A stretch of 64,000 nt of DNA, taken from assembly GCF_030013595.1 (NCBI RefSeq), contig NZ_CP122768.1; one strand, given 5' to 3'. A program made the translations under genes and the position numbers. This document shows, piece after piece, positions 4,517 to 64,000 of the stretch. Under the pieces are notes generated by a model, which saw only the letters and a list, made by a program, of their open reading frames with translations, made no database searches and had not been told where the DNA came from. Within the stretch, counting starts at the first letter, position 1, and each line of letters opens with the position of its first letter. This DNA is from Escherichia coli. Lineage in GTDB: Bacteria > Pseudomonadota > Gammaproteobacteria > Enterobacterales > Enterobacteriaceae.

Positions 4517-5100
4517 CCCTGCTCCTCCAGTGTCATCCGGTACTGGCGCAAGCGAACGCCTTCGTAATTTTCCATCGACAGACAGTCATAATTGAGACAG
4601 CGCGATTCATTAGCCGGTTGCGGCACAATTCCCCATGCAGCCAGCTGCGCCAGCGCCGCCTGTTCCGCTGCGGACAGTTGCTCCCGTGCCAGTTCGCTCA
4701 GGCTGCCGCCGTAGTCGTCGAGCATTGCGGGTTGCAGACCGACGAGGGCAATATGTGCTGGCAAATGACCACGTATATCCGCCAGCGCTAGCACTTCGGA
4801 GAAACTGTTCTGGTGCAGGCTCATTTTCTTCGCGCTGAGATAAGCCGGAATGCGTTCTCCGGCATACGTTCGTAGCGTTCCGGGTTCCAGCCCGTAATCA
4901 ATGGCATCGAGAATCAACAGATGACTGGCGCTTTCGACATACCCCAGCAAGTTCAGTCCTTGGGTGCCGCCATCGACAATCTCCACATACTCGGGCCAGT
5001 GGTAATGGGCATACAGCCGTTCCGCCACCCGCACGCCGAAGCCTTCATCGGCCCACAGCAGGTTACCCAGCCCCATTACCACCACGCGTTGCTCGCTCAT
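4513..5100 (-). CDS. hyaD: hydrogenase-1 maturation endopeptidase HyaD
   Basis: 195-aa [25 protein letters not shown]..., HybD/HyaD protease family; 4-bp overlaps with neighbours. Confidence 0.9.
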
Positions 5101-9157: not shown

Positions 9158-9245
9158 GGAAGTGTGGCCGAGCGGTTGAAGGCACCGGTCTTGAAAACCG
9201 GCGACCCGAAAGGGTTCCAGAGTTCGAATCTCTGCGCTTCCGCCA
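9158..9245 (+). tRNA. serT: tRNA-Ser (anticodon UGA)
   Basis: 88-nt sequence GGAAGTGTGGCCGAGCGGTTGAAGGCACCGGTCTTGAAAACCGG...GAATCTCTGCGCTTCCGCCA with long variable arm and anticodon loop CTTGAAA; encoded CCA end. Confidence 0.92.
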
Positions 9246-28043: not shown

Positions 28044-31724
<3,681 letters not shown>

Positions 31725-31750
<26 letters not shown>

Positions 31751-32270
31751 TCAGCAACCCCGGTATCAGTTCATCCAGCGCGGCTGCTTTGTTCATGGCT
31801 TTGATGATATCCCGTTTCAGGAAATCAACATGTCGGTTTTCCAGTTCCGGAAAACGCCGCTGCACCGACAGGGGGATCCCGTCGAGAATACTGGCAATTT
31901 CACCTGCGATCCGCGACAGCACGAAAGTACAGAATGCGGTTTCCACCACTTCAGCTGAGTCTCTGGCATTCTTCAGTTCCTGTGCGTCGGCCTGCGCACG
32001 CGTAAGTCGATGGCGTTCGTACTCAATAGTCCCTGGCTGGAGATCTGCCTCGCTGGCCTGGCGCAGTTCTTCAACCTCCCGGCGCAGCTTTTCGTTCTCA
32101 ATTTCAGCATCCCTTTCGGCATACCATTTTATAACGGCGGCAGAGTCATAAAGCACCTCATTACCCTTGCCACCGCCTCGCAGAACGGGCATTCCCTGTT
32201 CCTGCCAGTTCTGAATGGTACGGATACTCGCACCGAAAATGTCAGCCAGCTGCTTTTTGTTGACTTCCAT
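31725..32270 (-). CDS. Nu1: terminase small subunit Nu1
   Basis: 181-aa ORF MEVNKKQLADIFGASIRTIQNWQEQGMPVLRGGGKGNEV..., lambda Nu1 with N-terminal wHTH; 26-bp overlap with A as in lambda. Confidence 0.92.
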
Positions 32271-32447
32271 TGTTCATTCCACGGCCAAAAACAGAGAAAG
32301 GAAACGACAAAGGCCCAAAAGTTCGTTTTCAGCACCTGTCGTTTCCTTTCTTTTCAGGGGGTATTTTAAATAGAAACATTAAGTTACGACGAAGAAGAAC
32401 GGAAACGCCTTAAACCGGAAAATTTTCATAAATAGCGAAAACCCGCG
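32271..32447 (-). promoter_or_regulatory. cosB region (terminase binding sites) between cosN and Nu1
   Basis: Reverse complement reads GGGCGGCGACCTCGCGGGTTTTCGCTATTTATGAAAATTTTCCGGTTTAAGGCG..., about 95 percent identical to the lambda left-end leader as I recall it. Confidence 0.75.
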
Positions 32448-32459
32448 AGGTCGCCGCCC
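32448..32459 (-). other. cosN 12-nt cohesive-end sequence GGGCGGCGACCT
   Basis: Plus strand AGGTCGCCGCCC at 32448..32459, the reverse complement of the lambda 5' overhang. Confidence 0.85.
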
Positions 32460-32863
32460 CGTGGCAGGCCACCCCACCGGAAGGACCCGCACAAATGAGA
32501 GTGATTATCACCATTGCTGATGAATAAATTGATGAAAATCATTAAAACGCCTTTCAGCAAGATAACGGCGACGGTCGTTGTTGCACTCCGTAACTCTGCG
32601 ACTAAGGTTAAAAGCATGGCCCTCTTTTGCCACCGGCAAATCTTCAATGGATTTCCCCTGCCGGTTTTTTATTTTCGTCGATGCATAACATTGCATTTAC
32701 ATCAATAGCGGCTATTGTCATTAGTATGTTGCATAAATGCATGGGTGGTATTGGCGGTCTTCGCCGGCCGGTTCTGTGTAGCTGGACCGTTTTTTTATTT
32801 CTCACATTACAGCAGCCCCTTAGAGTGAAGGGCTGCTGTAATGCCGCAATCTTTTTTAACATG

Positions 32864-32883
32864 AAAAAGGCCGCAGAGCGGCC
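32864..32883 (-). terminator. candidate rho-independent terminator for the int-cargo transcript
   Basis: Hairpin GGCCGC-AGA-GCGGCC (32869..32883) preceded on the plus strand by AAAAA, i.e. followed by a U-run on the minus strand; about 125 bp after the 146-aa ORF stop. Confidence 0.5.
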
Positions 32884-33008
32884 ATAAACACAAGTAAAAA
32901 TCAATAAGTTATATAATTATCAAAGACTTACAGACACACAAAAACACAGCCAACCACAACAAATAACAGGGATGTGGTCATTTTGTGGATCATATCGCCG
33001 CCATAAAT

Positions 33009-33446
33009 TTACTTAATAACAGTAACCACAGCCACAAGCACGGCCATCGCAGACAGGACAATACCTGTGAGTAACCAAGTCTGATTTGCAAATGATTTCT
33101 GAAGTTCAGTACGATGCTCAGCCATCTCAACTTTCAGAGACTGGCGTAAATCAGCCATCTCAGACTTCAGGGATTGGCGCGATTCTGCCATCTCAAGCCT
33201 CAACCCTTCGCGAATCTCCAGTACATCAGATTTGGTAGCAAAGGATTCGCTTCTTGTGGTGAGAGTAATCAGGTTGTTTTTGATTTCAGTCACATCACTT
33301 TCCAGGCAACTGACCCGCCGTTCAAGGTCGTCATTCATGCCATCACCTCCATCATTACCACTTCCTGTTACTTGGTTGTTGGATACATTATAGGCATTCT
33401 CTTTCTTTTTTCTGAACCGCGAAATATGTGCAACATTCTCTGCCAT
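33009..33446 (-). CDS. hypothetical coiled-coil protein with C-terminal transmembrane anchor
   Basis: ORF ...LEIREGLRLEMAESRQSLKSEMADLRQSLKVEMAEHRTELQKSFANQTWLLTGIVLSAMAVLVAVVTVIK; ATG shares one base with the upstream stop (TGATG); family not recognised. Confidence 0.55.
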   Translation of the reverse strand: MAENVAHISRFRKKKENAYNVSNNQVTGSGNDGGDGMNDDLERRVSCLESDVTEIKNNLITLTTRSESFATKSDVLEIREGLRLEMAESRQSLKSEMADLRQSLKVEMAEHRTELQKSFANQTWLLTGIVLSAMAVLVAVVTVIK

Positions 33447-33808
33447 CACTTCTCATCACCCTGCTTGCCTACCCAGTTCATAAAGGCCCGGGCCGAGTAA
33501 CGATGAACAAACCCACATCTGTTACAGGTAAGTCGGAATTCATAGTTATGGATATTTTCCCGATCATGTCCCTCATATCCCGGATACCCAGTAAATGGAC
33601 CGATGTAATCAAGCATAACAAAAGTGCCTAAATCACACTCCTCAGCAGTTTTCGGCTCAGGCCCCACCTCAACAATATTCGTCAAATACATGTACATATC
33701 CGTATCGCCACACGACAAACATTTTTCATTCGTAGACGACTCATTGAGAAAACGCGCAAAATTATCGAGCGTTGCCATTCTTTTAAGTTCATCTAAATGA
33801 AACTTCAC
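33446..33808 (-). CDS. hypothetical Cys-rich protein (two CxxC pairs), translationally coupled to int
   Basis: 120-aa ORF with CLSCGD and CNRCGF; GTG start 2 nt after the int stop, preceded by AGGAGG inside the int 3' end. Confidence 0.55.
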   Translation of the reverse strand: MKFHLDELKRMATLDNFARFLNESSTNEKCLSCGDTDMYMYLTNIVEVGPEPKTAEECDLGTFVMLDYIGPFTGYPGYEGHDRENIHNYEFRLTCNRCGFVHRYSARAFMNWVGKQGDEK

Positions 33809-33810
33809 TC

Positions 33811-34788
33811 TTAAGCACCTCCTAGTGGATTAAACCTCACCGCATCCTGCAGGTAATCCGGCGCAAGATGGGCATAAATCATCGTTGTCTGAATCTTTGC
33901 GTGCCCCAGAATTTTCTGGAGCGTCAGAATATTGCCGCCGTTCATCATGAAATGACTGGCGAAGGTATGGCGCAGCGCATGAACAGCCTGGCCGTCAGGA
34001 ACATCAGGTGCGACCGTTTTGATGACATCGCGAACCAATGGATAATCCAGCGTCGGAAACACCAGTTTCCCGCCCCGTATTTTGATCTTTTCAAACAGGC
34101 TTTCAGAAATAGGAACGGTACGGTTTTTGCTGTTCTTCGTTTTTGAAAAAGTGATTCGACAATGAAGAACACGGCGCTGCTCTAGTGCCGCTACCTCGCC
34201 CCATCGCGCCCCGGTCGACAGAAGGATTTCGACAGCCAGCCGTTCATCGGGATTTTCAGCCAGTGCATCCAGCAACTGAACACATTCAGACTTACTCAGA
34301 TATCCCATTTCGCGCTCGTTAACCTTCATTCCTTTAAGGCCTTGAACGGGGTTATCGTTAAGAAAATGGCCGGATGAGATGAGTGCGGTAAACATCGCGC
34401 TTAACGCCCCAATCTCTCGATTTATGGTGCTGGGCTGTATCCCCTGCTCTATCCTGGACACACGTAGCTCGGTGAGCATCGTTGTATTAAGTTTATGCAC
34501 GCACGGGTCATCCATTGCCTCACTCAAGCGCAGCAATTTAAGGCGCGTGTTATGCCCTGACTTCATTAGCTGGCCGTGGTATTTCCACCACAAGTCAATA
34601 AGCACTGACAGCGGGCGGCGATCAATGGAGTTTCCTTTCCACTCATTGTTATGCTGTTGCGCCAGCACCCACCGCTCATATAAAACTGCATCCGATTTCG
34701 TTTTAAATTTTTTGCGAATGCGTTTGCCTTTACGCCCCTCAGGACGCATGTCAAGAAGATACCCTCCCGGAATTGATTTTATGCTCAT
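33811..34788 (-). CDS. int: tyrosine integrase, P2 Int family
   Basis: Starts MSIKSIPGGYLLDMRPEGRKGKRIRKKFKTKSDAV (compare P2 Int MAIKKLDDGRYEVDIRPTGRNGKRIRRKF); catalytic ...HALRHTFASH... and ...TTMIYAHL... motifs. Confidence 0.9.
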   Translation of the reverse strand: MSIKSIPGGYLLDMRPEGRKGKRIRKKFKTKSDAVLYERWVLAQQHNNEWKGNSIDRRPLSVLIDLWWKYHGQLMKSGHNTRLKLLRLSEAMDDPCVHKLNTTMLTELRVSRIEQGIQPSTINREIGALSAMFTALISSGHFLNDNPVQGLKGMKVNEREMGYLSKSECVQLLDALAENPDERLAVEILLSTGARWGEVAALEQRRVLHCRITFSKTKNSKNRTVPISESLFEKIKIRGGKLVFPTLDYPLVRDVIKTVAPDVPDGQAVHALRHTFASHFMMNGGNILTLQKILGHAKIQTTMIYAHLAPDYLQDAVRFNPLGGA

Positions 34789-51211: not shown

Positions 51212-51839
51212 GGCATTCACCCGCGTGGATGAAACCTTTGAGGCCATCCGCGACAGCCTGAATCAGCAGGCCATCAATAACATCGCCAGAAAGCTGGCAC
51301 AGGATTTACGCCGCGCCCAGCAGGCGCGTATCCGGTCACAGAAAGCGCCGGACGGGACCGCGTGGACACCACGCAGACGCCGCGTAACCCGGATACAGGA
51401 GCGCATTCGCTTTATCTGGAATAACGAAGCACGCACGCTGAAAAACTGGCATCACGACACGGGGAAATACGGGCGAACCATTACCGGGTGGGATGAGGAT
51501 AAAAACAATATCCGCACGTTTTACCGGGATGACATCGACCGTTTTCTGGAAATACGCACCCGGCGCATCAACCAGGACAGCACAAAGCGCGTCCCCATGT
51601 TCGTAAAACTGCGCACCGCCCGCTACCTGAAAGCCCGTGCAGATGCTTCCGGTGTGACGGTGGGTTACAGCGGCGTGGCCGCACGTATTGCCCGCGTTCA
51701 TCAGTTCGGTGAGCGCGATCAGGTTGCGCCGGGCATTTTCACCGATTACCCGGTACGTGAGCTGCTGGGTATCAGCCAGGCAGATGAGCGCCTGATTTAT
51801 AACACGGTGCTGGGCCGGATTGCGGAGGCTGTACGGTGA
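51195..51839 (+). CDS. S: tail completion/virion morphogenesis protein, P2 gpS-like
   Basis: 214-aa ORF between R and V; longer than P2 S, assignment by position. Confidence 0.7.
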   Translation: MKAMDKAFTRVDETFEAIRDSLNQQAINNIARKLAQDLRRAQQARIRSQKAPDGTAWTPRRRRVTRIQERIRFIWNNEARTLKNWHHDTGKYGRTITGWDEDKNNIRTFYRDDIDRFLEIRTRRINQDSTKRVPMFVKLRTARYLKARADASGVTVGYSGVAARIARVHQFGERDQVAPGIFTDYPVRELLGISQADERLIYNTVLGRIAEAVR

Positions 51840-52417
51840 GCGCAGAACTCATGCGACTGCTGAGCAATATCATCCGCACCGGGATCATCTCTGAAGTTGA
51901 TGAGAAGTCCTGGCGCGTGCGCGTTCGCAGCGGCGAACTGGAAACAGGCTGGTTGCGCTGGAACACCACGCGCGCGGGAGCCTTCAATGTATGGCTGCCG
52001 CCATCACCAGGCGAACAGGTGGTAATTGCCTGCATTGGCGGCAACCCGGAAACCGCCATGATAATTGGCAGCCTGTGGAGTGATGCCAGTCCGGCCCCCG
52101 GCAAAAGCCTGAAAGAAATCGTGGTCAGCGCGCCGGATGGCGCGGCGTTCCGCTACGACGCAGACGCTGGCGCACTGAGCGCCAGCGGCATGAAAACAGC
52201 CACCCTGCAGGCATCCGTCAGCGTGACACTGGATACGCCCGTCGTGGAATGCACAAACCTTCTGAGAACAGCGACGCTTGACGTCACAAAAGGGGGAAAG
52301 ATGAGCGGCAATATCACGCACAGCGGCGGCGATTTCACCTCAAACGGCATCACAGTGCATACGCATAAGCACGGTGGCGTTAAAGGTGGCAGCGATTCGA
52401 CAGGAGGCCCGCAGTGA
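51836..52417 (+). CDS. V: baseplate spike protein, P2 gpV family
   Basis: 193-aa ORF with OB-fold-like N-terminus and Gly-rich C-terminal tip region. Confidence 0.88.
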   Translation: MSAELMRLLSNIIRTGIISEVDEKSWRVRVRSGELETGWLRWNTTRAGAFNVWLPPSPGEQVVIACIGGNPETAMIIGSLWSDASPAPGKSLKEIVVSAPDGAAFRYDADAGALSASGMKTATLQASVSVTLDTPVVECTNLLRTATLDVTKGGKMSGNITHSGGDFTSNGITVHTHKHGGVKGGSDSTGGPQ

Positions 52418-52764
52418 CAACCCGCTACACAGGAATGAACCCGGACGGAACGGGAAACCTGAACGATATGGAGCACCTGAAACAGTCAGTCAGGGACATC
52501 CTGACCACCCCGCTGGCCAGCCGGGTTATGCGACGGGAATATGGCAGCCTTGTGCCTGATTTGATTGACGAACCCATGAATAACACCACGCGTCTGCAAT
52601 GCATGAGTGCTGCCGTGATTGCGCTGACACGATGGGAACCCCGCATTGCCCTGGACGCTATCGACGTTGTCTGGAAGGCAGGAGGCCGCGCCGGGGTGAC
52701 GCTGTCGGGCACTGTCATGCAGACCATGCAGAATGTTGAATTAACCATCACGCTGAGGGAGTAA
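52414..52764 (+). CDS. W: baseplate wedge protein, P2 gpW family
   Basis: 116-aa ORF, GPW/gp25 lysozyme-like fold pattern; ATGA overlap with V. Confidence 0.88.
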   Translation: MTTRYTGMNPDGTGNLNDMEHLKQSVRDILTTPLASRVMRREYGSLVPDLIDEPMNNTTRLQCMSAAVIALTRWEPRIALDAIDVVWKAGGRAGVTLSGTVMQTMQNVELTITLRE

Positions 52765-52767
52765 ATC

Positions 52768-53664
52768 ATGCCTGCCGTTGACCTTTCACAGTTACCGGAC
52801 CCCGCCATCATCGCGGAGCCTGACTTTGAGGCAATTCTGGCTGACACAAAGGCCATGATGATTGCGTCCTATCCCGCCGAACAGCGTGAAGCCGTTTCCG
52901 CCGCGCTGGAGCTGGAATCGGAACCCCTTAACGTTATCGCTCAAACCATGTCGTTTCGTGAAATGCTGTTACGCCAGCGGGTCAATGAGGGTGCACGCGC
53001 CTGCATGCTAAGCCACAGCGCCGGGACAGACCTGGACAACCTCGCGGGCAATATGAACACAAAGCGCCTGGTTATCACTCCGGCAACGGATACCACCGAC
53101 GCAGTGATGGAAAGTGACACCTCGCTGAGACTACGGGCGCAACGGGCATATGACGGTCTGAGTGTTGCTGGCCCGTCAGGTGCATACGAGTATTTTGCAC
53201 GCAGCGCCAGCGGTCTGGTACGCGATGCGCGGGCCATCAGCCCGTCTCCGGCCAACGTGACGGTTTCCATCCTGTCCACTGAGGGCGACGGCACAGCAAC
53301 GGAGGCATTGCTTAATACCGTTCGCGCCGTTCTGAATGCAGAGGATACCCGCCCGGTGGCCGACCGCCTGACCGTACAGAGTGCCAGAATCGTGACATGG
53401 CGGCTGAATGCAAAACTGTACTTTTACCCCGGCCCGGAATCCGAACCTATTCTGGCCGCGGCGGAATCGTCGTTCAGGAAGTGGCTGTCTGAGCAGGGGC
53501 TTATCGGTCAGGATGTGGCGTTGTCAGCCATTGCTGCCGCACTGCATGTGCACGGTGTGCAACGCGTGGAGATAATCGAACCCACACAAAATATGGCCAT
53601 CAGCGACATACAGGCGGCGCGCTGTGAGTCATTCACCATCAGCGAAGGTGGGCGTAATGAGTAA
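52768..53664 (+). CDS. J: baseplate protein, P2 gpJ family
   Basis: 298-aa ORF at the P2 J position. Confidence 0.9.
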   Translation: MPAVDLSQLPDPAIIAEPDFEAILADTKAMMIASYPAEQREAVSAALELESEPLNVIAQTMSFREMLLRQRVNEGARACMLSHSAGTDLDNLAGNMNTKRLVITPATDTTDAVMESDTSLRLRAQRAYDGLSVAGPSGAYEYFARSASGLVRDARAISPSPANVTVSILSTEGDGTATEALLNTVRAVLNAEDTRPVADRLTVQSARIVTWRLNAKLYFYPGPESEPILAAAESSFRKWLSEQGLIGQDVALSAIAAALHVHGVQRVEIIEPTQNMAISDIQAARCESFTISEGGRNE

Positions 53665-54187
53665 TTCACTGTTACCGCCATCAGCCAGCAATTTCATGCG
53701 TTGTGCCGAAGCTGTCGGAACGCGCATTACAGACATTCCGGTAGACCTCAACACGCTGTGGTCGCCGGACACCTGCCCGGTGCATCTGCTGCCTTATCTC
53801 GCCTGGGCATTTTCCGTTGACCGCTGGGATCGCAACTGGCCGGAAGAGACAAAGCGACAGGTGATTCGTGATGCATGGCTGATACACCGACACAAAGGGA
53901 CCATCAGCGCACTGCGCCGGGCCATTGAGCCGCTGGGATACCTCATTCGTGTGTCTGAGTGGTGGGAGTTCGGCGGAGAACCGGGAACATTTACCGTTGA
54001 AGTCGGCACGCTGGACAGTGGCGTGACGGAGGAAATGTATCTGGAAATGGAGCGGTTGATTGCTGATGCCCGCCCGGTCAGCCGCCACATGACAGGGCTG
54101 AATATCATTCAGGAGATCCCGGGGGATATTTTCGCGGCGGCAGCAACTTACGACGGTGAAGTCATTACCATTTATCCGGACGATTAA
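53657..54187 (+). CDS. I: baseplate/tail protein, P2 gpI family
   Basis: Start MSNSLLPPSASNF... aligns with the P2 I N-terminus; ...CPVHLLPYLAWAFSVDRWD...ADARPVSRHM...NIIQEIPGDIFAA... conserved. Confidence 0.85.
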   Translation: MSNSLLPPSASNFMRCAEAVGTRITDIPVDLNTLWSPDTCPVHLLPYLAWAFSVDRWDRNWPEETKRQVIRDAWLIHRHKGTISALRRAIEPLGYLIRVSEWWEFGGEPGTFTVEVGTLDSGVTEEMYLEMERLIADARPVSRHMTGLNIIQEIPGDIFAAAATYDGEVITIYPDD

Positions 54188-54189
54188 GC

Positions 54190-56781
54190 ATGAGTACCAC
54201 AACACGAAAATTTAAAACCATTATCACTGATACTGGTGCCAAAAAATTAGCTCAGGCAGCCGCGCCAGATGGTAATCCTGTCCGCCTGACTCACATGGCC
54301 GTGGGCGACGGTGGCGGCACGTTGCCCACACCAGACAGTAAGCAGACCCGTCTGGTGCATGAGGTGTGGCGACATACTGTTAATCGCGTCATCCTGGACG
54401 CAACACATCAGAACCGCATTATTGCGGAGCTGGTTATTCCTCCTGAAACGGGCGGATTCTGGATCCGGGAAATTGGTGTATTTGATGAGCACGGCGATTT
54501 GATCGCGGTGGGCAATACTGCGGAAAGTTACAAGCCAGCCGTTGCCGAAGGATCCGGACGTGTACAAACATTTCGCACCATTCTGACCGTATCCAGCACT
54601 GCCACCGTGGCGCTTACCGTGGATAACACCATGGTTATGGCCACAGTGGATTACGTGAATGACAAACTGAAAGAACATGAACAGTCACGACGTCACCCGG
54701 ACGCCTCGCTGACCGCAAAAGGCTTTGTTCAACTCAGTAGCGCCACCAACAGCACGTCTGAAACACTGGCCGCAACGCCGAAAGCGGTAAAGGCCGCGTA
54801 TGACCTTGCTAACGGGAAATATACCGCACAGGACGCCACCATAGCGCGAAAAGGCCTTGTCCAGCTCAGTAGTGCCACCAACAGCACGTCTGAAACGCTC
54901 GCCGCAACGCCGAAAGCGGTAAAGGCAGCATATGACCTTGCTAACGGGAAATACACTGCACAGGACGCCACCACAACGCGAAAAGGCCTTGTTCAGCTCA
55001 GTAGCGCCACCAACAGTGATTCTGAAACGCTTGCGGCAACGCCAAAGGCGGTAAAGGCAGCATATGACCTTGCTAACGGGAAATACACTGCACAGGACGC
55101 CACCACAGCGCGAAAAGGTCTTGTCCAGCTCAGTAGCGCCACCAACAGCACGTCTGAAGCATTGGCCGCAACACCGAAAGCGGTAAAGGCCGCGTATGAC
55201 CTTGCTAACGGGAAATACACTGCACAGGACGCCACCACAGCGCGAAAAGGTCTTGTCCAGCTCAGTAGCGTCACCAACAGCGATTCTGAAACGCTTGCGG
55301 CAACGCCAAAGGCGGTAAAGGCCGCGTATAACCTTGCTAACGGGAAATACACTGCACAGGATGCCACTACAGCGCGAAAAGGTCTTGTCCAGCTCAGTAG
55401 CGTCACCAACAGTGATTCTGAAACGCTGGCCGCAACATCAAAAGCGGTGAAGTCTGCCTATGACAATGCTGAAAAACGCCTTCAGAAAGATCAGAACGGT
55501 GCGGATATTCCGGGAAAGGATACCTTCACGAAAAATATCGGTGCCTGTCGTGCTTATAGCGGCGCTTTGAGCACTGAAGCCGGAAACTGGACAACCGCTC
55601 AGTTTATTGAATGGCTGGATTCCCGTGGTGCATTTAATCATCCGTACTGGATGTGCAAAGGCTCATGGTCATATGCAAATAACAAAATCATTACGGATAC
55701 CGGATGTGGTGATATCCACCTGGCTGGTTGTGTCGTCGAGGTCATGGGAACTAAATCTGCAATCACTATCCGAGTAACCACGCCGACAACATCAAGTGGT
55801 GGCGGTACAACCAGCGCACAATTCACTTACATTAATCATGGGGGCGGCTACTTCCCCGGCTGGCGTCGTGACTGGAATCGTCAGGGCGACTCAATGACCG
55901 GAACGATTAATCAGGATGGCGGAAGCCAGAATGCCTATATGTCTACGGCCTTATGTTCAGGCACCAGAGGCGGCAAAAAATATCTCAGAAAGTTTCGTGG
56001 TGGAGAAGGAGATACTATCTGGCATGAAACAGTACAGGGCGGGGTAATTCGCTGGGCGACAGGAAACTATGACGCTCAGGAAGAATTATCACTCAGCTCC
56101 GCTTATGGTCTCCGTTCAAGAGGTGAGATTACATCACTCAGTGCTAATGGTCTGCGCATTGCTTATGGCAATTATGGATTCTTTATCAGGAATGATGGCG
56201 GCAGCACATATTTAATGCTGACGGCCTCTGGCGATAAATTTGGGACATGGAACGGCTTAAGACCGCTGACTATCAATAACGCCAATGGCGGAGTGTCAAT
56301 GGGGCATGGCCTGAGTGTTACAGGTGATATTGTCTCAAGTACCAAAGTACGTGCCGGTAGCGGGAAAAAGTTCACGGTCAGCAGCAGCAATACATCCACG
56401 AAGGAAGCCGCATTCAATTTGTGGGGAAACGCAAGTCGTCCGGTGGTGGCTGAATTAGGTGATGATGCAGGCTGGCATTTTTACAGTCAGAGAAATACAG
56501 ATAACAGCATCACTTTTGCTGTTAACGGGCAGGTATCACCATCTAACTATGGCAACTTTGATTCACGCTATGTCCGGGATATTAGACTTGGTGGCGCGTC
56601 ATCCTATAAACCAGCAAATAACGGGACAACATGGACGCATCAGGCTCCATCTGGTTGCGCATATACCGGGATTATCGTTCAGGATACAGGCTCAAACTCT
56701 GCCGATAATATTGGTGGTGTTTATTACAGACCAATTCAAAAAAATATTAATGGTACATGGTATAACGTATCGAGTGTTTGA
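54190..56781 (+). CDS. H: tail fibre protein, P2 gpH-like, with internal tandem repeats
   Basis: 863-aa ORF; N-terminal 170 aa like P2 H; five and a half tandem copies of a 44-aa unit; Gly-rich distal domain. Confidence 0.9.
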   Translation: MSTTTRKFKTIITDTGAKKLAQAAAPDGNPVRLTHMAVGDGGGTLPTPDSKQTRLVHEVWRHTVNRVILDATHQNRIIAELVIPPETGGFWIREIGVFDEHGDLIAVGNTAESYKPAVAEGSGRVQTFRTILTVSSTATVALTVDNTMVMATVDYVNDKLKEHEQSRRHPDASLTAKGFVQLSSATNSTSETLAATPKAVKAAYDLANGKYTAQDATIARKGLVQLSSATNSTSETLAATPKAVKAAYDLANGKYTAQDATTTRKGLVQLSSATNSDSETLAATPKAVKAAYDLANGKYTAQDATTARKGLVQLSSATNSTSEALAATPKAVKAAYDLANGKYTAQDATTARKGLVQLSSVTNSDSETLAATPKAVKAAYNLANGKYTAQDATTARKGLVQLSSVTNSDSETLAATSKAVKSAYDNAEKRLQKDQNGADIPGKDTFTKNIGACRAYSGALSTEAGNWTTAQFIEWLDSRGAFNHPYWMCKGSWSYANNKIITDTGCGDIHLAGCVVEVMGTKSAITIRVTTPTTSSGGGTTSAQFTYINHGGGYFPGWRRDWNRQGDSMTGTINQDGGSQNAYMSTALCSGTRGGKKYLRKFRGGEGDTIWHETVQGGVIRWATGNYDAQEELSLSSAYGLRSRGEITSLSANGLRIAYGNYGFFIRNDGGSTYLMLTASGDKFGTWNGLRPLTINNANGGVSMGHGLSVTGDIVSSTKVRAGSGKKFTVSSSNTSTKEAAFNLWGNASRPVVAELGDDAGWHFYSQRNTDNSITFAVNGQVSPSNYGNFDSRYVRDIRLGGASSYKPANNGTTWTHQAPSGCAYTGIIVQDTGSNSADNIGGVYYRPIQKNINGTWYNVSSV
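54718..55455 (+). repeat. tandem array of a 132-bp (44-codon) unit inside tail fibre gene H
   Basis: Protein repeats KGLVQLSSATNSTSETLAATPKAVKAAYDLANGKYTAQDATTAR x5 plus a diverged partial sixth; nucleotide copies over 90 percent identical. Confidence 0.85.
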
Positions 56782-57317
56782 TTATGATGCATTTAAAAAA
56801 TATAAAACCGGGCAATCCAAAAACAAAAGAACAGTACCTGTTAACTAAAAACTCCGGCGTTGTCTGGTTATTCGCTGAAGATGGTAAAAACTGGTATGAG
56901 GAACAAAAGAACTTTCAGCCAGACACCATAAAGATTGCATATGATGAAAATAATGTCATATGCGACGTGCAAACGGATGTAACTGCAATTTGCCCGGAAG
57001 GAAAAAGTGTTGTCGAGTTGCCTAATATTACAGCAAACCGACGCGCTGATATTTCAGGTAACTGGATGTTTAAAGATGGCTCAGTCATTAAACGTGTGTA
57101 TACCGAAGAAGAGCAACGCTTGCAGGCTGAAAACCAGAAACAAAGGTTATTACAGCAGGCCAGAGAAAAAACGCAGTTCTGGCAGACCCAGCTTGCATTA
57201 GGGATTATCAGTGATTCAGATAAGCAACAACTGATGCGCTGGATGCGGTACGTGCAACAAGTTGAGACCACTGATACCACTGAATTACCCGTTACGTTCC
57301 CTGATCAACCAGAATAA
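56778..57317 (+). CDS. G: tail fibre assembly protein, P2 gpG-like
   Basis: 179-aa ORF overlapping the H stop; C-terminal ...QQLMRWMRYVQQVETTDTTELPVTFPDQP tail fibre chaperone pattern. Confidence 0.85.
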   Translation: MIMMHLKNIKPGNPKTKEQYLLTKNSGVVWLFAEDGKNWYEEQKNFQPDTIKIAYDENNVICDVQTDVTAICPEGKSVVELPNITANRRADISGNWMFKDGSVIKRVYTEEEQRLQAENQKQRLLQQAREKTQFWQTQLALGIISDSDKQQLMRWMRYVQQVETTDTTELPVTFPDQPE

Positions 57318-57320
57318 ACG

Positions 57321-57345
57321 AAAGGCCCGAATATCGGGCCTTATC
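57321..57345. terminator. bidirectional terminator hairpin between convergent G and U
   Basis: AAAGGCCCGA-ATAT-CGGGCCTT with an A-rich 5' flank and T-rich 3' flank. Confidence 0.6.
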
Positions 57346-57385
57346 GTTATTTCTGTTTATCTAACTATTTGTGATTTGCGTTAAA

Positions 57386-57880
57386 TCAGAACAGTCCCTT
57401 AACAGAACTGACCGCACTGTTAAGGGATGACGCCACCTTATCTTTGAAGCCGGACAGCATATCGCTGAACGATGAGGATTGCAGGCGCTCCCGCAAATCC
57501 TCATCACAGCGTTCAAGGGTCAGTGAAAATTCTATCTTTTTCGCCTTACCGTAGCGATCAAACTCGGAACGGGTCGTATTCGTTTCAGTCAGCACATACA
57601 TGCCGTAAATCTGCCCGACACCATCAATCAGAGGCCAGGGGCGTCCTGTATATGCCTGCGTGGTCAGCAACGAAAGCGACACTTCGCCACCTGTAATTTC
57701 AGGATAAAGCACGCCGGAAAGCACAATGCGATCATCACCTGCACCTATATACTGCCAGCTTGCTGAACGGTTAACGCGTTCATTTTTTACATGCCGCCAG
57801 CTTTTGTTTTGCTGTAACTGCTGATGCGGCAGTGTGCGCAGCTCAAAAACAAACATGCCGTAGATCATCATCATGGCCAT
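57386..57880 (-). CDS. U: tail protein, P2 gpU family
   Basis: ...MFVFELRTLPHQQLQQNKSWRHVKNERVNR...WPLIDGVGQIYGMYV... aligns with P2 U (MMVLGLFVFQLRTVPYQQLQQ...). Confidence 0.85.
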   Translation of the reverse strand: MAMMMIYGMFVFELRTLPHQQLQQNKSWRHVKNERVNRSASWQYIGAGDDRIVLSGVLYPEITGGEVSLSLLTTQAYTGRPWPLIDGVGQIYGMYVLTETNTTRSEFDRYGKAKKIEFSLTLERCDEDLRERLQSSSFSDMLSGFKDKVASSLNSAVSSVKGLF

Positions 57881-57886
57881 GACTCC

Positions 57887-60703
57887 TCAATCTTTATCGT
57901 AAAAACTGCCACGTCCGGCACGGGCGCGCCGTTCCATCTCTGCCCTGACCATTTCACCGACCAGTTTCGCCAGTTCGCGGGGATTCTGCGTAACAACGTT
58001 ATGCAGATGAACATGAATTTCACCGCCAAACCCGGAGGCAACAGGCTCCCGGTTACGGAAAGTTGCAGGAACTGATGCCACTGGAGAGCGTATGGCCTCC
58101 GCCACCGGGCGGGAGCTGGCCGCAACAACAGGGACCAGCGCCGGAGGCAGCGGAGCCGGGACCACGGGTGTGATATTAATTGCGGGGGCAGGCTTACTGA
58201 CCTGCGCAATCTTCCGCTCCTGCCACTCCCCACGAACAGCAAGTGCGCGGGGCAGGTTCTTAAAGACAATATCGCCGGGGCCAATGCGTTTTTTCGTCTC
58301 ATCAACCAGCTTACCTGTGTTATCAGCAATTTTGCTGAGTCTGCGTAGCGTACCGGTATTGCTGTCTGTGAGCGGTTTGTTGTCTTTGGGCTTATCACCT
58401 CCGGTGCCATTGCCATTTTCCACAGGCTTCGGCGGATTGATTTTCGCCAGGTCCCCCTGAAGCAAGGCAACCTTGTCCTGAAGAATGGCCGCACGCTGTG
58501 CGTCTTCGATTTTCTTGCGCGCCCTTTCCGCTTCATCCGGAAGCACACCGAGCTTTTCAAGTATCCACGCCAGCGTATCCAGCAACATTTTTGCAGGTGT
58601 CAGAACAAGTTGTAACGCACCGCCAAGAACGTTACCGAATATCTCGCCAGCACTGGTACATTTATCCAGCGTTTCCTTGCTGGACTCCATCGGTGACAGC
58701 AGCGATTTAAACCAGTTAAACACCTGGCTGATCCCGCTTCCGATTGCGTCAAAAACAGGACCAAACCGTTCAAAGGTTTCGCGCAACGGGGTCAGCCTTT
58801 CCATAATCCCGCTGAACACTCCGGCAAAAAATGCCCTGATGGGATCCCAGTATTTCCAGATAAGAACGGCAGCTCCGGCAAGCGCAGCCACAATAAGACC
58901 AACCGGACTGAACAACGCCCCGATAGCGCCTCCCAGTAAAGAAACAGAACCCGTCACCATTCCCCACAGCGCAGGCAACACCCTGACGACATTCATTGAC
59001 CGGGTCAGGATGTCAAAACCAAGACGCAGGGTGGCCAGCTTCCCGTAAAGCACCCCAATAACCAGCGACAACGAGCCAATCGTTGCAGTCATTGCCAGCA
59101 ACGCACCGCCTGCTATCAGTAGCTGGCGCGTCAGTACCGGATGGGCCTGCGCCAGCGAGGTGATTTTTTCAAGCACCCGCGTGAACCACTGCGTGACAAA
59201 ACGCAGCGGACCGTCAACCAGATCACTGATGCGAATACGAAGACCTTCCCATGCGCTGTCGAGATTTTTCAGGTCCCCATCAAGATTATCGGCCATTACT
59301 TTTGCAACGCGATCGGCCTCTCCCCTTGCCCCCTGCAATTCTCTGGTCAGTTTTTGCAGCTCTCCTGAACCAGCCGCCGCAACAAGCGTCTGCAAACCAA
59401 CGAACGCCTCTTCTCCGGCGATGTCCTTGAAGAAGGAGACCTGGTCCACCTGTCCGTATTTTTGTGTCGCCTTATAGAGATCAAGCAGCACATCCTCCAT
59501 CGGGCGCATTTTGCCTCTGGCGTCAGCAACTGACACCCCAAGCTCTTTCAGCGCATCAGCCGCAGCTTTTGGCGGTGATGCAAGGCGGGACAGACTTGCG
59601 CGCATGGCCGTACCAGCATCGCTTCCACGAAGACCATTATTGGCAAGCATCCCGGCCATGGCTGCCGCTTCTTCAAGACTGATACCAAGTTTTGCGGCAA
59701 CCGGACCGGTATACTTCATGGTTTCGCCCAGCGCGCGTAAATCAGTATTGGTCCGGGTGAATGCCGCTGTCAGCGTATCGCCAACCCGGTCCATTTGATC
59801 GGCTGTCAGGTTGAACTGTGTGAGGATATTGGAGCCTATATCAGCCGTCTCGCCGAGTTCGACGCCACCTGCCAGCGCCATATTAAGAACACCGGGCAAT
59901 GCGGCCTGAATGGCCTGCGGAGTAAAACCAGCCATTGCCAGAAAGCTCTGCCCACTGGCGGCATCACTCGCAGTAAACTGTGTTTCAGAGCCAAGTTTTA
60001 ACGCCTGCTCACGCAGCGCCTTAAACTGCGGGCTGTTTTTGTCGATTCGCGTCAGTGCCTGAACGCGGGACATCTCTTTGCCGAACCCGATCGCAGGCTG
60101 CAAAAAACGCCCGGCAGCATAGCCGCCCGCCGCTGCCGCACCAATTGCCAGCGCACCACCTGTTTTCAGTTTTCCCGCTGTTTCCTGCGCGCGCGAATAC
60201 CGCTCACGCGCCCGCGTTACACGCGCAAGCGCCTGCCGTTCGCGTTCAAGCTGGTTGTTGTACTGTTCGGTGCGTCTGATGGCCTGCTGGATGGTGTTAT
60301 CGCTGCCTGTCAGGGAAATGCCGTGGCGTTTCAGCTCTCCGCCAAGCTCCCGCATTTTCTGAATTTCCCGTGTGCGCGATTCATTCAGGCGTTCAAGCCG
60401 GGTGCTTAACTGCTGCATCAGCTTTTGTTGTTTTTCGCTGAGCACTGTACCCGTGCGTTGTAACTGATTAAGGGCGTTAAGCTGGCGTCGTGCTTTCAAT
60501 ATGCCAGCATCCGCTTTACTGACAGCGTCACGGGCGCGCTCAAATGAACGCGCCTGACGCTCGAGATTTTTGATCGCCCCCTGCGTTCGCTGGATGGAGT
60601 CACCAAGCTGCCCCATCAGGCGGCGGGCGTTTTCGGCAGGCCGGGTCAACCTGTCAACGGCGCTGAAAGCGACCCGGATATCAAGAGTCTTCATTATCTG
60701 CAT
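57887..60703 (-). CDS. T: tail tape measure protein, P2 gpT family
   Basis: 938-aa largely alpha-helical ORF with central hydrophobic segments. Confidence 0.9.
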   Translation of the reverse strand: MQIMKTLDIRVAFSAVDRLTRPAENARRLMGQLGDSIQRTQGAIKNLERQARSFERARDAVSKADAGILKARRQLNALNQLQRTGTVLSEKQQKLMQQLSTRLERLNESRTREIQKMRELGGELKRHGISLTGSDNTIQQAIRRTEQYNNQLERERQALARVTRARERYSRAQETAGKLKTGGALAIGAAAAGGYAAGRFLQPAIGFGKEMSRVQALTRIDKNSPQFKALREQALKLGSETQFTASDAASGQSFLAMAGFTPQAIQAALPGVLNMALAGGVELGETADIGSNILTQFNLTADQMDRVGDTLTAAFTRTNTDLRALGETMKYTGPVAAKLGISLEEAAAMAGMLANNGLRGSDAGTAMRASLSRLASPPKAAADALKELGVSVADARGKMRPMEDVLLDLYKATQKYGQVDQVSFFKDIAGEEAFVGLQTLVAAAGSGELQKLTRELQGARGEADRVAKVMADNLDGDLKNLDSAWEGLRIRISDLVDGPLRFVTQWFTRVLEKITSLAQAHPVLTRQLLIAGGALLAMTATIGSLSLVIGVLYGKLATLRLGFDILTRSMNVVRVLPALWGMVTGSVSLLGGAIGALFSPVGLIVAALAGAAVLIWKYWDPIRAFFAGVFSGIMERLTPLRETFERFGPVFDAIGSGISQVFNWFKSLLSPMESSKETLDKCTSAGEIFGNVLGGALQLVLTPAKMLLDTLAWILEKLGVLPDEAERARKKIEDAQRAAILQDKVALLQGDLAKINPPKPVENGNGTGGDKPKDNKPLTDSNTGTLRRLSKIADNTGKLVDETKKRIGPGDIVFKNLPRALAVRGEWQERKIAQVSKPAPAINITPVVPAPLPPALVPVVAASSRPVAEAIRSPVASVPATFRNREPVASGFGGEIHVHLHNVVTQNPRELAKLVGEMVRAEMERRARAGRGSFYDKD

Positions 60704-61219
60704 TCCCGCTGCGAAGTGCCGCCCGCTCGCGCCAGCTAACCACTTCGCCGGGCGTCATCATGAAGATTTCGGCGGGCGACCAGTTAAAAATGGCGGCAAT
60801 ATCCGCCACCAGATCTTCGATGTGCTCAAAGCACACCAGGGTGATTACGCTGCCGTCTCCTGCACGCTCTTCGCGCCAGAGTCTGGCTCGCTCATAAAAT
60901 TTACAGCCACAGCGCACAACTGAATAAAATCGCGTGACGACATTTTTTTAATCATCACTTCATCCAGTCGTGGCGAGGTCACGCGAGGCAACAGCGTGAA
61001 CATGGTATCCGCTTTCAGATTCAGCACATCAGACAGCGACAGACCACGCAGGGATCCAGCCTGCTCAATAGCCCCGGTGATCTCCACATACGTGATTTTT
61101 TCGCCACCACGCTCAATTGGTCGGGTCAGTTTTACGCCACGTTCGACAGCCATATCCTCACCTGCCGTCACATCATCCGCCACGGTGTTATTCCGGGTTT
61201 CAGTATCGATGTCTTTCAT
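60681..61219 (-). CDS. E+E' tail chaperone fusion by programmed -1 frameshift (putative)
   Basis: 78-codon ORF 60681..60917 lies in the -1 frame overlapping the E 3' end and the T start, the conserved P2 E/E' arrangement. Confidence 0.55.
60845..61219 (-). CDS. E: tail assembly chaperone, P2 gpE-like (start uncertain)
   Basis: 124-aa ORF between FII and T. Confidence 0.7.
   Translation of the reverse strand: MKDIDTETRNNTVADDVTAGEDMAVERGVKLTRPIERGGEKITYVEITGAIEQAGSLRGLSLSDVLNLKADTMFTLLPRVTSPRLDEVMIKKMSSRDFIQLCAVAVNFMSEPDSGAKSVQETAA
60943..60949 (-). other. candidate slippery A7 run for the E/E' frameshift
   Basis: Plus-strand TTTTTTT at 60943..60949 (minus-strand AAAAAAA read as ATT AAA AAA ATG); the only homopolymer between the -1-frame stop at 60948..60950 and the E stop. 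Confidence 0.45.
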
Positions 61220-61274
61220 CAGTTGTCTCCTTTTCAGTCAGAGGCGACGCACTGCGCCGCCTGCATATTATTTA

Positions 61275-61787
61275 TCAGCCAAGCCCAAGCGCGGAACGGA
61301 TACGGTCAGGCACAATGTCCTTGCCGTCCTTCCGGTAGATGTGGTTCAACAGGTCGATTTCCCACAGCGGGCGATCGTTAACGCTCAGCTTGTAGTAGGT
61401 GTTTTTGACAGCGTAAGTGTGTGATGTGGCTTCGCCCTGTTTGGCTTCCCCCATATCAATTTCCGTCACACGCCCGCGCATCTCGATTTCATACAGATCA
61501 CTTTCTGCATCGGTGTAGTATTCACCCGCAAAACGCAGCAGCGTGCCGTCAATCGTGCCGCCATATTTAAGGAACAGCGCACGAACAGCTCCCCCCATAA
61601 CAAAACTCGCATCAAGCGCGGAGTCGTCCAGACCGAGATCAATACTTACCGCCCCCATCATGCCACCACCACGATAGCTGTCGGTTTTGCGCGTCAGTTT
61701 GGGCGGCGTGACGGATGTCACTTTACCCACTTCGTTTTCACCATCCACAAACAACGTAAAAAAGCGAAGATGTTTTGGTACAGCCAT
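61275..61787 (-). CDS. FII: tail tube protein, P2 gpFII family
   Basis: 170-aa ORF immediately after the sheath gene. Confidence 0.88.
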   Translation of the reverse strand: MAVPKHLRFFTLFVDGENEVGKVTSVTPPKLTRKTDSYRGGGMMGAVSIDLGLDDSALDASFVMGGAVRALFLKYGGTIDGTLLRFAGEYYTDAESDLYEIEMRGRVTEIDMGEAKQGEATSHTYAVKNTYYKLSVNDRPLWEIDLLNHIYRKDGKDIVPDRIRSALGLG

Positions 61788-62971
61788 CAGACACCTCCCA
61801 GCACCGCAAATGCGGGACCAAAGAATTCATCAGTAAACGTCTGGTAAAGCTCCATGTCTTCCAGTGGCGGAACGGGCGTATATTTGTAGCGAATACGCAC
61901 ACGTCCCTGACGTAAATCCGTGGTGCCGTTATCCACCACGTCATACCAGCACTCCGCACCAATCAGTTTCCCGGCAGTAACCAGCGAATCCAGTTTTGCT
62001 CTGATGGCACTGATAACATCCTTCACGTTCGCAGGCGTCAGTGGACTGTCGATGGTTTCAAACTGCGCTTCCGCAATTGAATCAGCCAGCACCTGTGCGG
62101 TTCGGGTATACACCTCAAAGATGTAGGCGTTCGTTTCCGGTGTGCGGTTGCCCCAGAAGCGGAACCCGTTGCGACGAATAATGGTCGTGATTTCTTTGTT
62201 GTTGAGGCTGTTGGCATCACTGTCTTCAGCCTGCAACGACCAGAACACATGCCTCGACATCCCCAGCACATTTTTAACCGGAACGTTGGACAGCGATTTG
62301 TGCCAGCCCTGCTCATGGTCAATGTACGCACGAAGGCCGCACGCATAGGCAGGCGCGGGGAACGTTTCGTTTTCGCCACTTTTCGGGTTGTAGGCGATGA
62401 AGTCCGGCCACAAGAGCATCACCTCACGTTCGTTGAATTTCTGGCGGTAGGTAATCGCTTCAGCCATCGTGTTACAGCCGTGACATGCGGCATACACAAA
62501 CGCGCGCAGTTTACCCGCAATCACGCACAGGGATTTTGTCACCGCCTCCGTGTCCAGCTCCGGCGCGGCCAGAATACGCGGACGGTATCCGATGCTTTCA
62601 TCCTGCTCTGCAACAAGCAGCGCATACATCCCCGTATAGCTGCCGTCATCCTCAGAACCACCGATAACCAGTTGATCCTGCGTCTTACCGTCTTCTTCTT
62701 TGTGTTCAGCCACGCGAACGACGATCACCTTTGTGCTCACCTGGTCTGCGATGGCCTTAAGCGCACGATAAAGCGTCCCCGTTGTTCCGCATTTTCCCAG
62801 CACGTCATTGACGCGGGTCAGCAGTGTGGGCTTGTTCAGCGGGAACAGCTTCGCGTCCGCATCATCCGCCGTTGCCACGATACCGATAACGCTGGAATCA
62901 ACATCGTTAATCGCTGTTACCAGGTCGGTATTTTCCGTAACACGGGCACCATGAAAACGAGTTTCACTCAT
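61787..62971 (-). CDS. FI: contractile tail sheath protein, P2 gpFI family
   Basis: 394-aa ORF; ...FPLNKPTLLT...KLRAFVYAA...WPDF...GWHKSLSNV...RRNGFRFWGNRT...YTPVPPLE... align with P2 FI. Confidence 0.92.
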   Translation of the reverse strand: MSETRFHGARVTENTDLVTAINDVDSSVIGIVATADDADAKLFPLNKPTLLTRVNDVLGKCGTTGTLYRALKAIADQVSTKVIVVRVAEHKEEDGKTQDQLVIGGSEDDGSYTGMYALLVAEQDESIGYRPRILAAPELDTEAVTKSLCVIAGKLRAFVYAACHGCNTMAEAITYRQKFNEREVMLLWPDFIAYNPKSGENETFPAPAYACGLRAYIDHEQGWHKSLSNVPVKNVLGMSRHVFWSLQAEDSDANSLNNKEITTIIRRNGFRFWGNRTPETNAYIFEVYTRTAQVLADSIAEAQFETIDSPLTPANVKDVISAIRAKLDSLVTAGKLIGAECWYDVVDNGTTDLRQGRVRIRYKYTPVPPLEDMELYQTFTDEFFGPAFAVLGGV

Positions 62972-63128
62972 AGCTTCAGCCCCTTGTATCCGTTAAATGA
63001 TTCGGCAACAATCATCACCCACCACGCGCGTAATCTCACCCCTGCGCCGTTCTCCCGACCCAGCGACAACAAAAAGCAGTAACCCCCTCCGCACGCACAT
63101 GCGACCATGCCGCACAGGGAGGGAACAG
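62972..63128. promoter_or_regulatory. divergent promoter region between sheath gene FI and D
   Basis: 157-bp interval between divergent FI and D starts; must carry promoters for both. Confidence 0.4.
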
Positions 63129-64000
63129 ATGACCGACACCACCATGCAATTGCTCAGTCAGGGCACAGACCCCGTGAAAATGCCGGATTTTGATATTCTT
63201 GCGGAGGGTAAAACGCTGTCAGGCGTGGCAGAGCGCCTGATGAGCCTGTCACTGACCGACAACCGGGGATTTGAGGCGGACCAGCTCACCATCACGCTGG
63301 ATGATGCGGATGGTCAGTTGCAGCTACCGCCACGGGGCGCGCGCCTGACGGTTCTCATTGGCTGGAAAGGAGAACCGCTGACAGAAAAAGGCACTTACAT
63401 TGTTGATGAAATCGCTCACGAAGGACCGCCGGACAGGCTGACAGTTTCAGCCAGAAGCGCAGATTTTCGGGATGAATTTAACGTTAAACGTGAGGTGTCC
63501 TGGCATGATGTGACCGTTGAGCGTGTGGTATCCGCCATCGCTCATCGGTATGGTCTGAAATCGCAAATCAGCGAAATGCTGATGGATATTGAAATCGACC
63601 ACGCCGACCAGACCGAAGAAAGCGACATGTCCTTCCTTACGCGCATGGCGGAAATGCTGGGCGCAATCACTACGGTAAAAAGCGGTAATCTGTTATTCAT
63701 TATGCCAGGCGGTGGCGTGAACGCGCAGGGCCAGCCGTTGCCCTCGTTCGCCATCACACGCAGCAGCGGCGATCGCCATCAGTTCCGCATTGCTGACCGA
63801 GAGGCGTATACGGGGGTACGCGCTTACTGGCTTGATCTTAATTACGGGAAAAAGAAAAAAGTCAGCGTGAAACGCCGTAAACCGCCAAAACCCAAAAAGG
63901 AGAAAAGCAGCAGCCGTGAAGGTGATTATATGGAAGGCGCGGAAGGCAATGTGTTTGTGTTACGCAAGACTTATCAGAACGAGCAGGCAGCAAGACGCGC
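63129..64000 (+). CDS. D: tail protein D (P2 gpD family), 5' 290 codons; runs off window end
   Basis: ATG 63129 after GGGAGGG; open to the end of the window; starts MTDTTMQLLSQGTDPVKMPDFDILAEGKTLSGVAERLMSLSLTDNRGFEADQLTITLDD, the gpD/late-control D pattern. Confidence 0.85.
   Translation, partial: MTDTTMQLLSQGTDPVKMPDFDILAEGKTLSGVAERLMSLSLTDNRGFEADQLTITLDDADGQLQLPPRGARLTVLIGWKGEPLTEKGTYIVDEIAHEGPPDRLTVSARSADFRDEFNVKREVSWHDVTVERVVSAIAHRYGLKSQISEMLMDIEIDHADQTEESDMSFLTRMAEMLGAITTVKSGNLLFIMPGGGVNAQGQPLPSFAITRSSGDRHQFRIADREAYTGVRAYWLDLNYGKKKKVSVKRRKPPKPKKEKSSSREGDYMEGAEGNVFVLRKTYQNEQAARR

Follow-up and report, generated by a model that had tools for sequence, protein, structure and literature searches.

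Probable integrase-mediated insertion of a P88-like prophage into a lambdoid prophage of Escherichia coli at a 20-bp terminator-like core near cos

How did a lambdoid and a P2-like prophage come to adjoin one another in the middle of a 64,000-nucleotide stretch of Escherichia coli DNA (contig NZ_CP122768.1; hereafter the window), and where exactly does one end and the other begin? The boundary sits between lambdoid head genes (Nu1 and the lambda cos region) and a P2-like int module, in an interval whose AT-richness, remarked on in an earlier sequence-only reading, is borne out by a GC content of 0.46 at 32-34 kb against 0.54-0.60 on either side. Our analysis indicates, with high confidence, that this interval is the int-proximal junction (attL) of a P88-like (P2-family, Xuanwuvirus-like) prophage that Int would have inserted into a resident lambdoid prophage. 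The explanation as a whole, which takes in Int-driven insertion at a 20-bp core 405 bp from the lambdoid cosN, is in our view very probably correct. The lambdoid side and the junction itself carry the following features:

31725..32270, minus strand: lambdoid terminase small subunit Nu1 (Pfam Phage_Nu1, 9.2e-101).
32448..32459, minus strand: lambdoid cosN, the reverse complement of GGGCGGCGACCT.
32768..32799, plus strand: terminator-like hairpin with a T-run (CCGG...GG ACCG TTTTTTTATTT), from the terminator scan.
32805..32843, no strand assigned: lambdoid inverted repeat or hairpin with 14-bp arms and an 11-nt loop, from repeat search and folding.
32864..32883, no strand assigned: att core of attL, AAAAAGGCCGCAGAGCGGCC, the overlap of lambdoid and P2-like homology.

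The cosN assignment comes from AGGTCGCCGCCC at 32448..32459, which we take to be the complement of the lambda 12-nt cohesive end, and the surrounding segment (32300..32510) matches lambda-family phages at 90-92%, under the annotated 'cos site' in phage DE3.

Base-by-base comparison showed that the lambdoid and P2-like homology classes overlap on the 20 bp at 32864..32883. In base-level alignments the window follows the ETEC1706 lambdoid prophage up to 32883 and is unrelated to it beyond, and the P2-like end in SE11 is unrelated to the window left of ~32862 and near-identical to it from ~32864 rightward. Megablast against 5,426 complete E. coli genomes returned many that match 32864..33900 at 99.5-99.8%, starting exactly at 32864, together with ETEC1706 and others that match 32640..32883 at 99.6% and end exactly at 32883. 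The position of the junction and its core are, then, direct observations, and the left attachment site of the P2-like element is located in the interval where it had been expected. The region 32809-32883, which had been proposed as a whole to be the attachment-site region, contains the core in its terminator (32864..32883), and the inverted repeat that it also contains lies outside the core. Nor does the core fall between int and the 120-aa ORF, the other location that had been considered.

The core coincides with a predicted intrinsic terminator. As had been claimed for the minus strand, the terminator scan found stem, loop and T-run in place: the stem GGCCGC/GCGGCC at 32869..32883 has six GC pairs and a 3-nt loop (TCT), and is followed directly by TTTTT, the complement of 32864..32868. 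This hairpin has a folding energy of -12.9 kcal/mol (z -3.7), and its 15-mer occurs once in the window against 0.01 copies expected. The same 20 bp are found at both ends of the SE11 prophage (attL and attR), in ETEC1706 where the lambdoid site is uninterrupted, in the attR of five related contigs (L006, L007 and L017-L019) and in the attL of another, L008. If the core hairpins terminate transcription, as their form suggests, the terminator would be re-formed at both junctions after integration because the core is itself the terminator hairpin, and at attL the hairpin, with a T-run supplied by the lambdoid side, would close the phage int-cargo operon on the minus strand. In this reading a terminator hairpin serves as an attB of 20 bp that is portable.

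The inverted repeat to the left of the core has the two 10-bp arms first described, ACAGCAGCCC (32809..32818) and GGGCTGCTGT (32830..32839), separated by the 11-nt loop, and its perfect pairing proved to extend further, to 14-bp arms (CATTACAGCAGCCC, 32805-32818, and GGGCTGCTGTAATG, 32830-32843, 11 nt apart). It folds as RNA with -25.7 kcal/mol on the plus strand and -29.3 on the minus strand, and with z values of -5.9 and -6.5 and none of 200 shuffles folding as well, the repeat goes beyond chance. With no U-run next to the stem, it fails as an intrinsic terminator on both strands, in agreement with the earlier observation that no U-run is properly placed on it: on the plus strand a T6 run begins at 32852, 8 nt past the stem, on the minus strand TGAGAAATAAAAAAA comes after the stem with no T-run, and the terminator scan left the repeat uncalled. 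A scan of 32200..33200 with Rfam 15 gave sub-threshold noise only and no family for the repeat, the best overlaps on it being mir-980 (18 bits, gathering 47) and rli40 (17.8 bits, gathering 100), with E values of 0.07-0.9.

The repeat is found among lambdoid prophages with and without the core. It is identical in the uninterrupted lambdoids L003 and L004, diverged in L002 and L009-L016, and turns up in substituted form in phiSTEC1575-Stx2k, cdtI, phi458 and several prophages. It lies ~350 bp from cosN, just downstream of the plus-strand terminator-like hairpin at 32768..32799, which is kept beside it in other lambdoids. Among the lineages compared, only that of the window has an ihfA-like terminator next to the repeat. 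A small ORF annotated by PGAP in strain R1 contains stops in the window's version. We also noted that two similar plus-strand terminator-like units (CCGG...CCGG then TTTTTTATTT), at 32632..32674 and 32768..32799, bracket a segment of ~112 bp (32675..32786) that cdtI-type lambdoids, L015 and L016 lack, the first unit there lying directly against the inverted repeat; this gap looks like a small indel between direct repeats.

Our most likely reading of the repeat, put forward tentatively, is a transcript-level hairpin without a U-tract where the lambdoid late accessory region ends. In several lineages the hairpin is placed directly after the last late-region ORF, and in L009, L010 and L013 an annotated minus-strand ORF stops no more than a few bases away from it. 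When eight distinct variants are compared, 94% of cells are paired in the stem, against 27-56% in slid controls. Counting against this reading, the hairpin lacks a U-tract and its G-U pairs would favour the plus strand, which is antisense to the late operon. A DNA-level element, either a target bound by a dimeric phage protein or a hotspot of recombination, prone to cruciform formation, that gives rise to a mosaic boundary, is a possible but less probable alternative. It would account for the perfect 14-bp dyad and for the recurrence of a ~60-bp block in different contexts, including cdtI and phi458; the sequence directly right of the repeat varies among lambdoid lineages, which marks a mosaic boundary there, and four of its pairs are broken in some variants, several substitutions unpairing the stem without compensation. 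Against this reading, no candidate binding protein was identified, and the L012/L014 lineage, the only one with compensatory evidence, keeps and even lengthens the stem by changes on both sides while the sequence of the arms changes, which argues for recognition of structure rather than of sequence.

To the right of the core, the P2-like side begins with the following features:

32884..33008, no strand assigned: int-proximal P' arm of the phage att site, with IHF-consensus and Int arm motifs.
33009..33446, minus strand: 145-aa ORF, coiled-coil-like, last int-side cargo gene; a hypothetical protein in SE11 (phrog_9415, unknown function).
33446..33808, minus strand: 120-aa ORF, int-side cargo (phrog_4293, unknown function).
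33811..34788, minus strand: P2-like tyrosine integrase, 325 aa as annotated in relatives, identified with Pfam and PHROG.

The integrase next to the junction was recognised directly (Pfam Int_N 2.7e-28 and Phage_integrase 1e-19; PHROG integrase 5e-72), and its open frame extends to 34938. Beyond int come a minus-strand HTH repressor and then plus-strand P2-type early genes, including a 940-aa replication endonuclease, in an early region sharing 90-98% identity with P88-like phages (P88, P884B11; genus Xuanwuvirus). The int module of the window was found in no sequenced phage of the INPHARED collection.

The AT-rich segment 32884..33008, conserved at 99.7% with SE11-type prophages, would be the P' arm of the phage, with predicted Int and IHF sites. 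It contains IHF-consensus matches at 32899..32911 (AATCAATAAGTTA) and 32918..32930 (TATCAAAGACTTA), which are two of only three matches to WATCAANNNNTTR, the IHF consensus, in the 64-kb window, and two direct repeats of the P2-type Int arm motif, TGTGGTCA (32973..32980) and TGTGGATC (32984..32991), 11 bp apart. On the other side, the ogr-side P arm seen in L017 and SE11 has TGTGGACA and GTGGAAC, likewise 11 bp apart, and the IHF-consensus match AATCAATCGGTTA beside the core. P2-type integrases bind direct repeats with the consensus tgTGGaCa on both sides of the core (PMC3448106), and at the level of motifs both arm-type repeats and IHF matches are present on each side here.

The two small ORFs downstream of int had been assigned to the P2-like element, and the assignment held, since homology to prophages at the btuC/ihfA site spans the 120-aa ORF, the 145-aa ORF and int together. 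The whole of the window from 32864 to its end reads as one P88-like prophage, with the two int-side ORFs as phage cargo. Searches of both ORFs with Pfam and PADLOC yielded no convincing family (Fez1 scored 17.8 bits, the cut-off being 34.4; LmuB had E 0.0075). In L008 a single different gene (4582..5100) stands between attL and int in place of the 145-aa and 120-aa ORFs, next to an int that is 98.7% identical, and the int-proximal slot appears to be a cargo-exchange hotspot.

Further into the prophage, the block encoding tail sheath, tube, gpE, tape-measure and gpU (57386..62971, minus strand) lies opposite in strand to the other late genes, a layout that SE11 shares; in P2 itself this block is collinear with the other late genes. 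ARAGORN called a 90-nt tRNA-Leu(cag) at 52123..52212 (minus strand) within the P2-like baseplate/tail block, which overlaps long ORFs and may be a false positive.

The usual chromosomal location of this phage type is evident from its relatives. In SE11 the prophage is found between btuC and ihfA, and the SE11 end compared above is the one beside btuC. Its attL and attR share a 25-bp direct repeat, AAAGAAAAAAGGCCGCAGAGCGGCC, in line with the 25-nt duplication reported for the SE11 prophage PP_SE11-4 (Oshima et al. 2008, PMC2608844). The att hairpin lies directly downstream of ihfA in SE11, and the primary attB is therefore the ihfA terminator, between ihfA and btuC, with attP and attB identical over 25 bp. 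The canonical btuC-side attL was present in 304 of the 5,426 complete E. coli genomes. The exact 120-aa protein of the window is indexed in 6,699 collection blocks, and all 10 of the contigs sampled from these place it by btuC; the 145-aa ORF always accompanies int at the btuC site in the sampled contigs. As a separate observation, in two contigs (L025, GCA_031670655.1; L027, GCA_002946735.1) IS elements stand in place of most of the prophage at the btuC site, and all that is left of it is a 45-aa piece of int together with the 120-aa and 145-aa genes. These are degraded remnants that keep the cargo.

The target in the window is of another kind. The terminator of the lambdoid lineage, which has 20 bp in common with attP and 23 bp with the ihfA attB, would act as an alternative attB, and we propose that Int accepts it with 20 of the 25 core bp shared. 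This site was observed directly in its unoccupied state: ETEC1706 equals the window up to 32883 and equals the attR flank of L017 after the core, and in the ETEC1706 lambdoid prophage small ORFs, a GH108 endolysin and holins follow the core. Unoccupied copies were found in 43 of the 5,426 complete genomes, all 43 uninterrupted, which fits a rarely used secondary site. The insertion point appears to be between the lambdoid lysis cassette and the packaging/head genes, and the lambdoid prophage would be interrupted by the insertion rather than truncated at cos.

The lambdoid prophage is probably defective, because its gpA homologue (terminase large subunit; 29825..31750, minus strand, 641 codons) has an in-frame stop at codon 443 (30422..30424). 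The gpA copy of ETEC1706 is itself frameshifted and heavily deleted. At the far end of the window's lambdoid prophage, 7077..10430 matches at 98.8% the ETEC1706 sequence running from hyaB and hyaA through tRNA-Ser to lambdoid tail-fibre assembly genes, with tRNA-Ser(tga) at 9158..9245 (plus strand); the tail end of the lambdoid prophage therefore abuts tRNA-Ser beside the hya genes, and E. coli chromosome makes up the initial ~9 kb of the window.

One account of the resemblance between the lambdoid site and the ihfA terminator is that the former is a captured piece of the host ihfA region, kept as a 'landing pad' for recruiting P2-like phages. We regard this as unlikely. An exact 23-bp identity to the ihfA terminator region is improbable for random sequence, more than one pairing of phage and lambdoid has made use of the site, and Nakamura et al. 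show prophage attB copies derived from yecE, ykgJ/ecpE and ompW (PMC8112680). Those published cases, however, keep 81-87% identity over 100-300 bp of flank (PMC8112680), whereas here similarity to ihfA-btuC is restricted to the 23 bp, with none beyond them within +/-300 bp, so that the flanks of the lambdoid site do not trace to the host site. About half of the 23 bp are constrained as a GC hairpin and an A/T run, which makes convergence plausible, and none of the 43 copies found in complete genomes is occupied. A bolder proposal, to which we give slightly less credence still, is that this lambdoid lineage carries a functional attB mimic of the ihfA terminator just upstream of cos that P88-like phages hit repeatedly, disabling or holding hostage the competing prophage, or conversely that the site serves as a landing pad that spares the host ihfA. 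If that were true, the 36-kb insert would come between two parts of the lambdoid genome, with the late promoter and the lysis genes on one side and cos and the head genes on the other, and bring the cos-to-cos distance far above the lambda packaging limit, as a form of inter-phage conflict.

An insertion by Int at the secondary site predicts a reciprocal junction at the other end of the P2-like prophage. The sequence-only reading had called for a search for a direct repeat of the core there, and this was found in close relatives: within the 64-kb window the core occurs once, with no second copy, because the far end of the prophage is predicted to lie beyond position 64000, and a repeat at both ends is seen in relatives only (the attR of L017-L019, the single genome that holds L006 and L008, and SE11). 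We assembled the predicted attR (phage ogr-side arm, core, then TTTATGGTTTATTGAC...) from SE11 and ETEC1706 before searching. An exact scan found it unchanged in the IMG/VR contigs L006 and L007, and attL was found in IMG/VR contig L008, from the same IMG genome as L006. A look-up of contigs encoding the exact tail-sheath protein of the window yielded three more carriers of the predicted attR, L017 (GCA_053639275.1), L018 (GCA_008326365.1) and L019 (a Logan assembly). These three are 99.6-99.75% identical to 51787..64000, over the last 8-12 kb of the window, and they run from sheath through gpD, cargo, ogr, hok and the core into lambdoid small ORFs, endolysin, holins and DUF1883. The P2-like prophage has lambdoid sequence as its left neighbour in the window and as its right neighbour in the relatives, the arrangement of a prophage within a prophage.

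The five att sequences align exactly as reciprocal site-specific recombination predicts, and reciprocal junctions in relatives, like the empty sites, are matters of direct observation; from these, with the integrase and its arm motifs, we infer that Int catalysed the integration. By comparison with these relatives, the attR of the window itself should lie at ~68.9 kb, ~4.9 kb past the window end, which would give a prophage of ~36 kb. Its expected sequence is ...GGTTA(C/T)TGAAAGAAAAAAGGCCGCAGAGCGGCC followed by TTTATGGTTTATTGACAATTG and the lambdoid lysis genes; excision would produce a circle with the attP sequence ...TTGAAAGAAAAAAGGCCGCAGAGCGGCCATAAACAC... and a restored lambdoid site reading ...CATGAAAAAGGCCGCAGAGCGGCCTTTATGG....

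The region next to attR has peculiarities of its own. A four-gene cargo between gpD and ogr (L017 5178..8575, also in L018 and L019) encodes HxsD, two radical-SAM proteins and a 211-aa protein; the same slot holds a different, 384-aa gene in SE11 and none in L020, and L017-L019 have a hok/gef toxin gene beside attR.

The lambdoid flank of L008 is ~94% identical to that of the window and its int-side cargo is different, so that at least two separate combinations show the nesting. BLAST with both hybrid junctions found a nested attL or attR in none of the 5,426 complete E. coli genomes, and an exact scan for the predicted attR gave no match in species-representative genomes and JGI metagenome contigs, two collections with little E. 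coli strain diversity. The absence of the junction from complete genomes could suggest that it arose without integrase, by homologous or illegitimate recombination between look-alike terminators or as an assembly chimera, and 20 bp of identity could indeed allow a rare RecA-independent exchange or mislead a short-k assembler. We nevertheless consider such an origin very improbable: both reciprocal junctions are precise and keep the core, they occur in independent assemblies (NCBI, Logan, IMG) and in the two or more phage/lambdoid combinations, and the exchange point is exactly the known att core of the phage, beside integrase and arm sites.

That the 14-bp inverted repeat instead forms the att core, or that attB needs it, for example as symmetric sites of the core type bound by the integrase, is largely refuted: it is only 21 bp from the junction, tyrosine-recombinase cores are often dyad-symmetric and it adjoins the core in all nested examples found (the window and L008), but it lies wholly on the lambdoid side of the homology break, unchanged from uninterrupted lambdoids, it is absent from the reconstructed attP arms, the canonical ihfA/btuC attB and SE11 attL and attR, the repeat-less canonical site holds the same integrase module in the 304 complete genomes, and strain R1-class lambdoids (L004) have the repeat without the core. 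The repeat is pre-existing lambdoid flank; it does not belong to the att site and would take no part in integration.

Insertion by Int at the core, the reading that we prefer, settles the prophage boundaries in the window, and it alerts annotation pipelines to the clean split that a short core resembling a terminator can make between tandem or nested prophages. By established lambda biology, the composite would remain unpackageable as a lambdoid genome until excision, given 36 kb of insert between cos and the lysis genes. The finding raises no long-standing question, and the mechanism would be conventional tyrosine-integrase recombination at a secondary site.

Such sites have a precedent in P2, for which Barreiro and Haggard-Ljungquist reportedly described secondary sites in 1992, with locI preferred and locH and others showing partial core identity. 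A P2-type integrase there too is reported to act at an incompletely matching core and at low frequency relative to the preferred site; the core and the integrase specificity are different, and the site here is on a prophage instead of the chromosome proper.

The closest relatives are the P88-like phages, by their early region, and PP_SE11-4 at btuC/ihfA (PMC2608844), which resembles the prophage of the window in int, the 120-aa and 145-aa ORFs and the P' arm (99.7% identical), in the att core hairpin and in a size of ~36 kb. PP_SE11-4 differs in its left flank, which is btuC there and a lambdoid prophage here, and in the identity between core and target, 25 bp against 20 bp.

Nesting as such was described in STEC/EPEC by Nakamura, Ogura, Gotoh and Hayashi (2021; PMC8112680), where, as here, a temperate phage uses an attB copy inside a lambdoid prophage, the primary chromosomal site is used elsewhere and the host prophage looks defective. 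In their cases the incoming phages are lambdoid, often Stx phages, whereas here the incoming phage is P2-like; the attB copies are in effector-gene loci near the prophage ends, not between lysis genes and cos; and their flanks keep 81-87% homology to yecE, ykgJ/ecpE or ompW (PMC8112680), compared with 23 bp only for the present site. That study mentions neither P2-like phages nor ihfA (PMC8112680).

Helper-embedded PICIs (Tommasini, Mageeney and Williams 2023; PMC10111431) are likewise nested in a lambdoid late region, and there too late expression and packaging of the helper across the site need prior excision. Those elements, however, are ~11-kb helper-dependent satellites with a dedicated integrase clade and targets in late-gene coding sequence (PMC10111431), whereas the present one appears to be a complete, autonomous 36-kb prophage of the myovirus type, in an intergenic terminator that is a minority target. 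Taken with these systems, the junction would be a fresh case of two phenomena already on record, insertion at a secondary site by a P2-family integrase and the nesting of one prophage in another, and it would add a P2-family example to a kind of nesting so far described for lambdoid phages.
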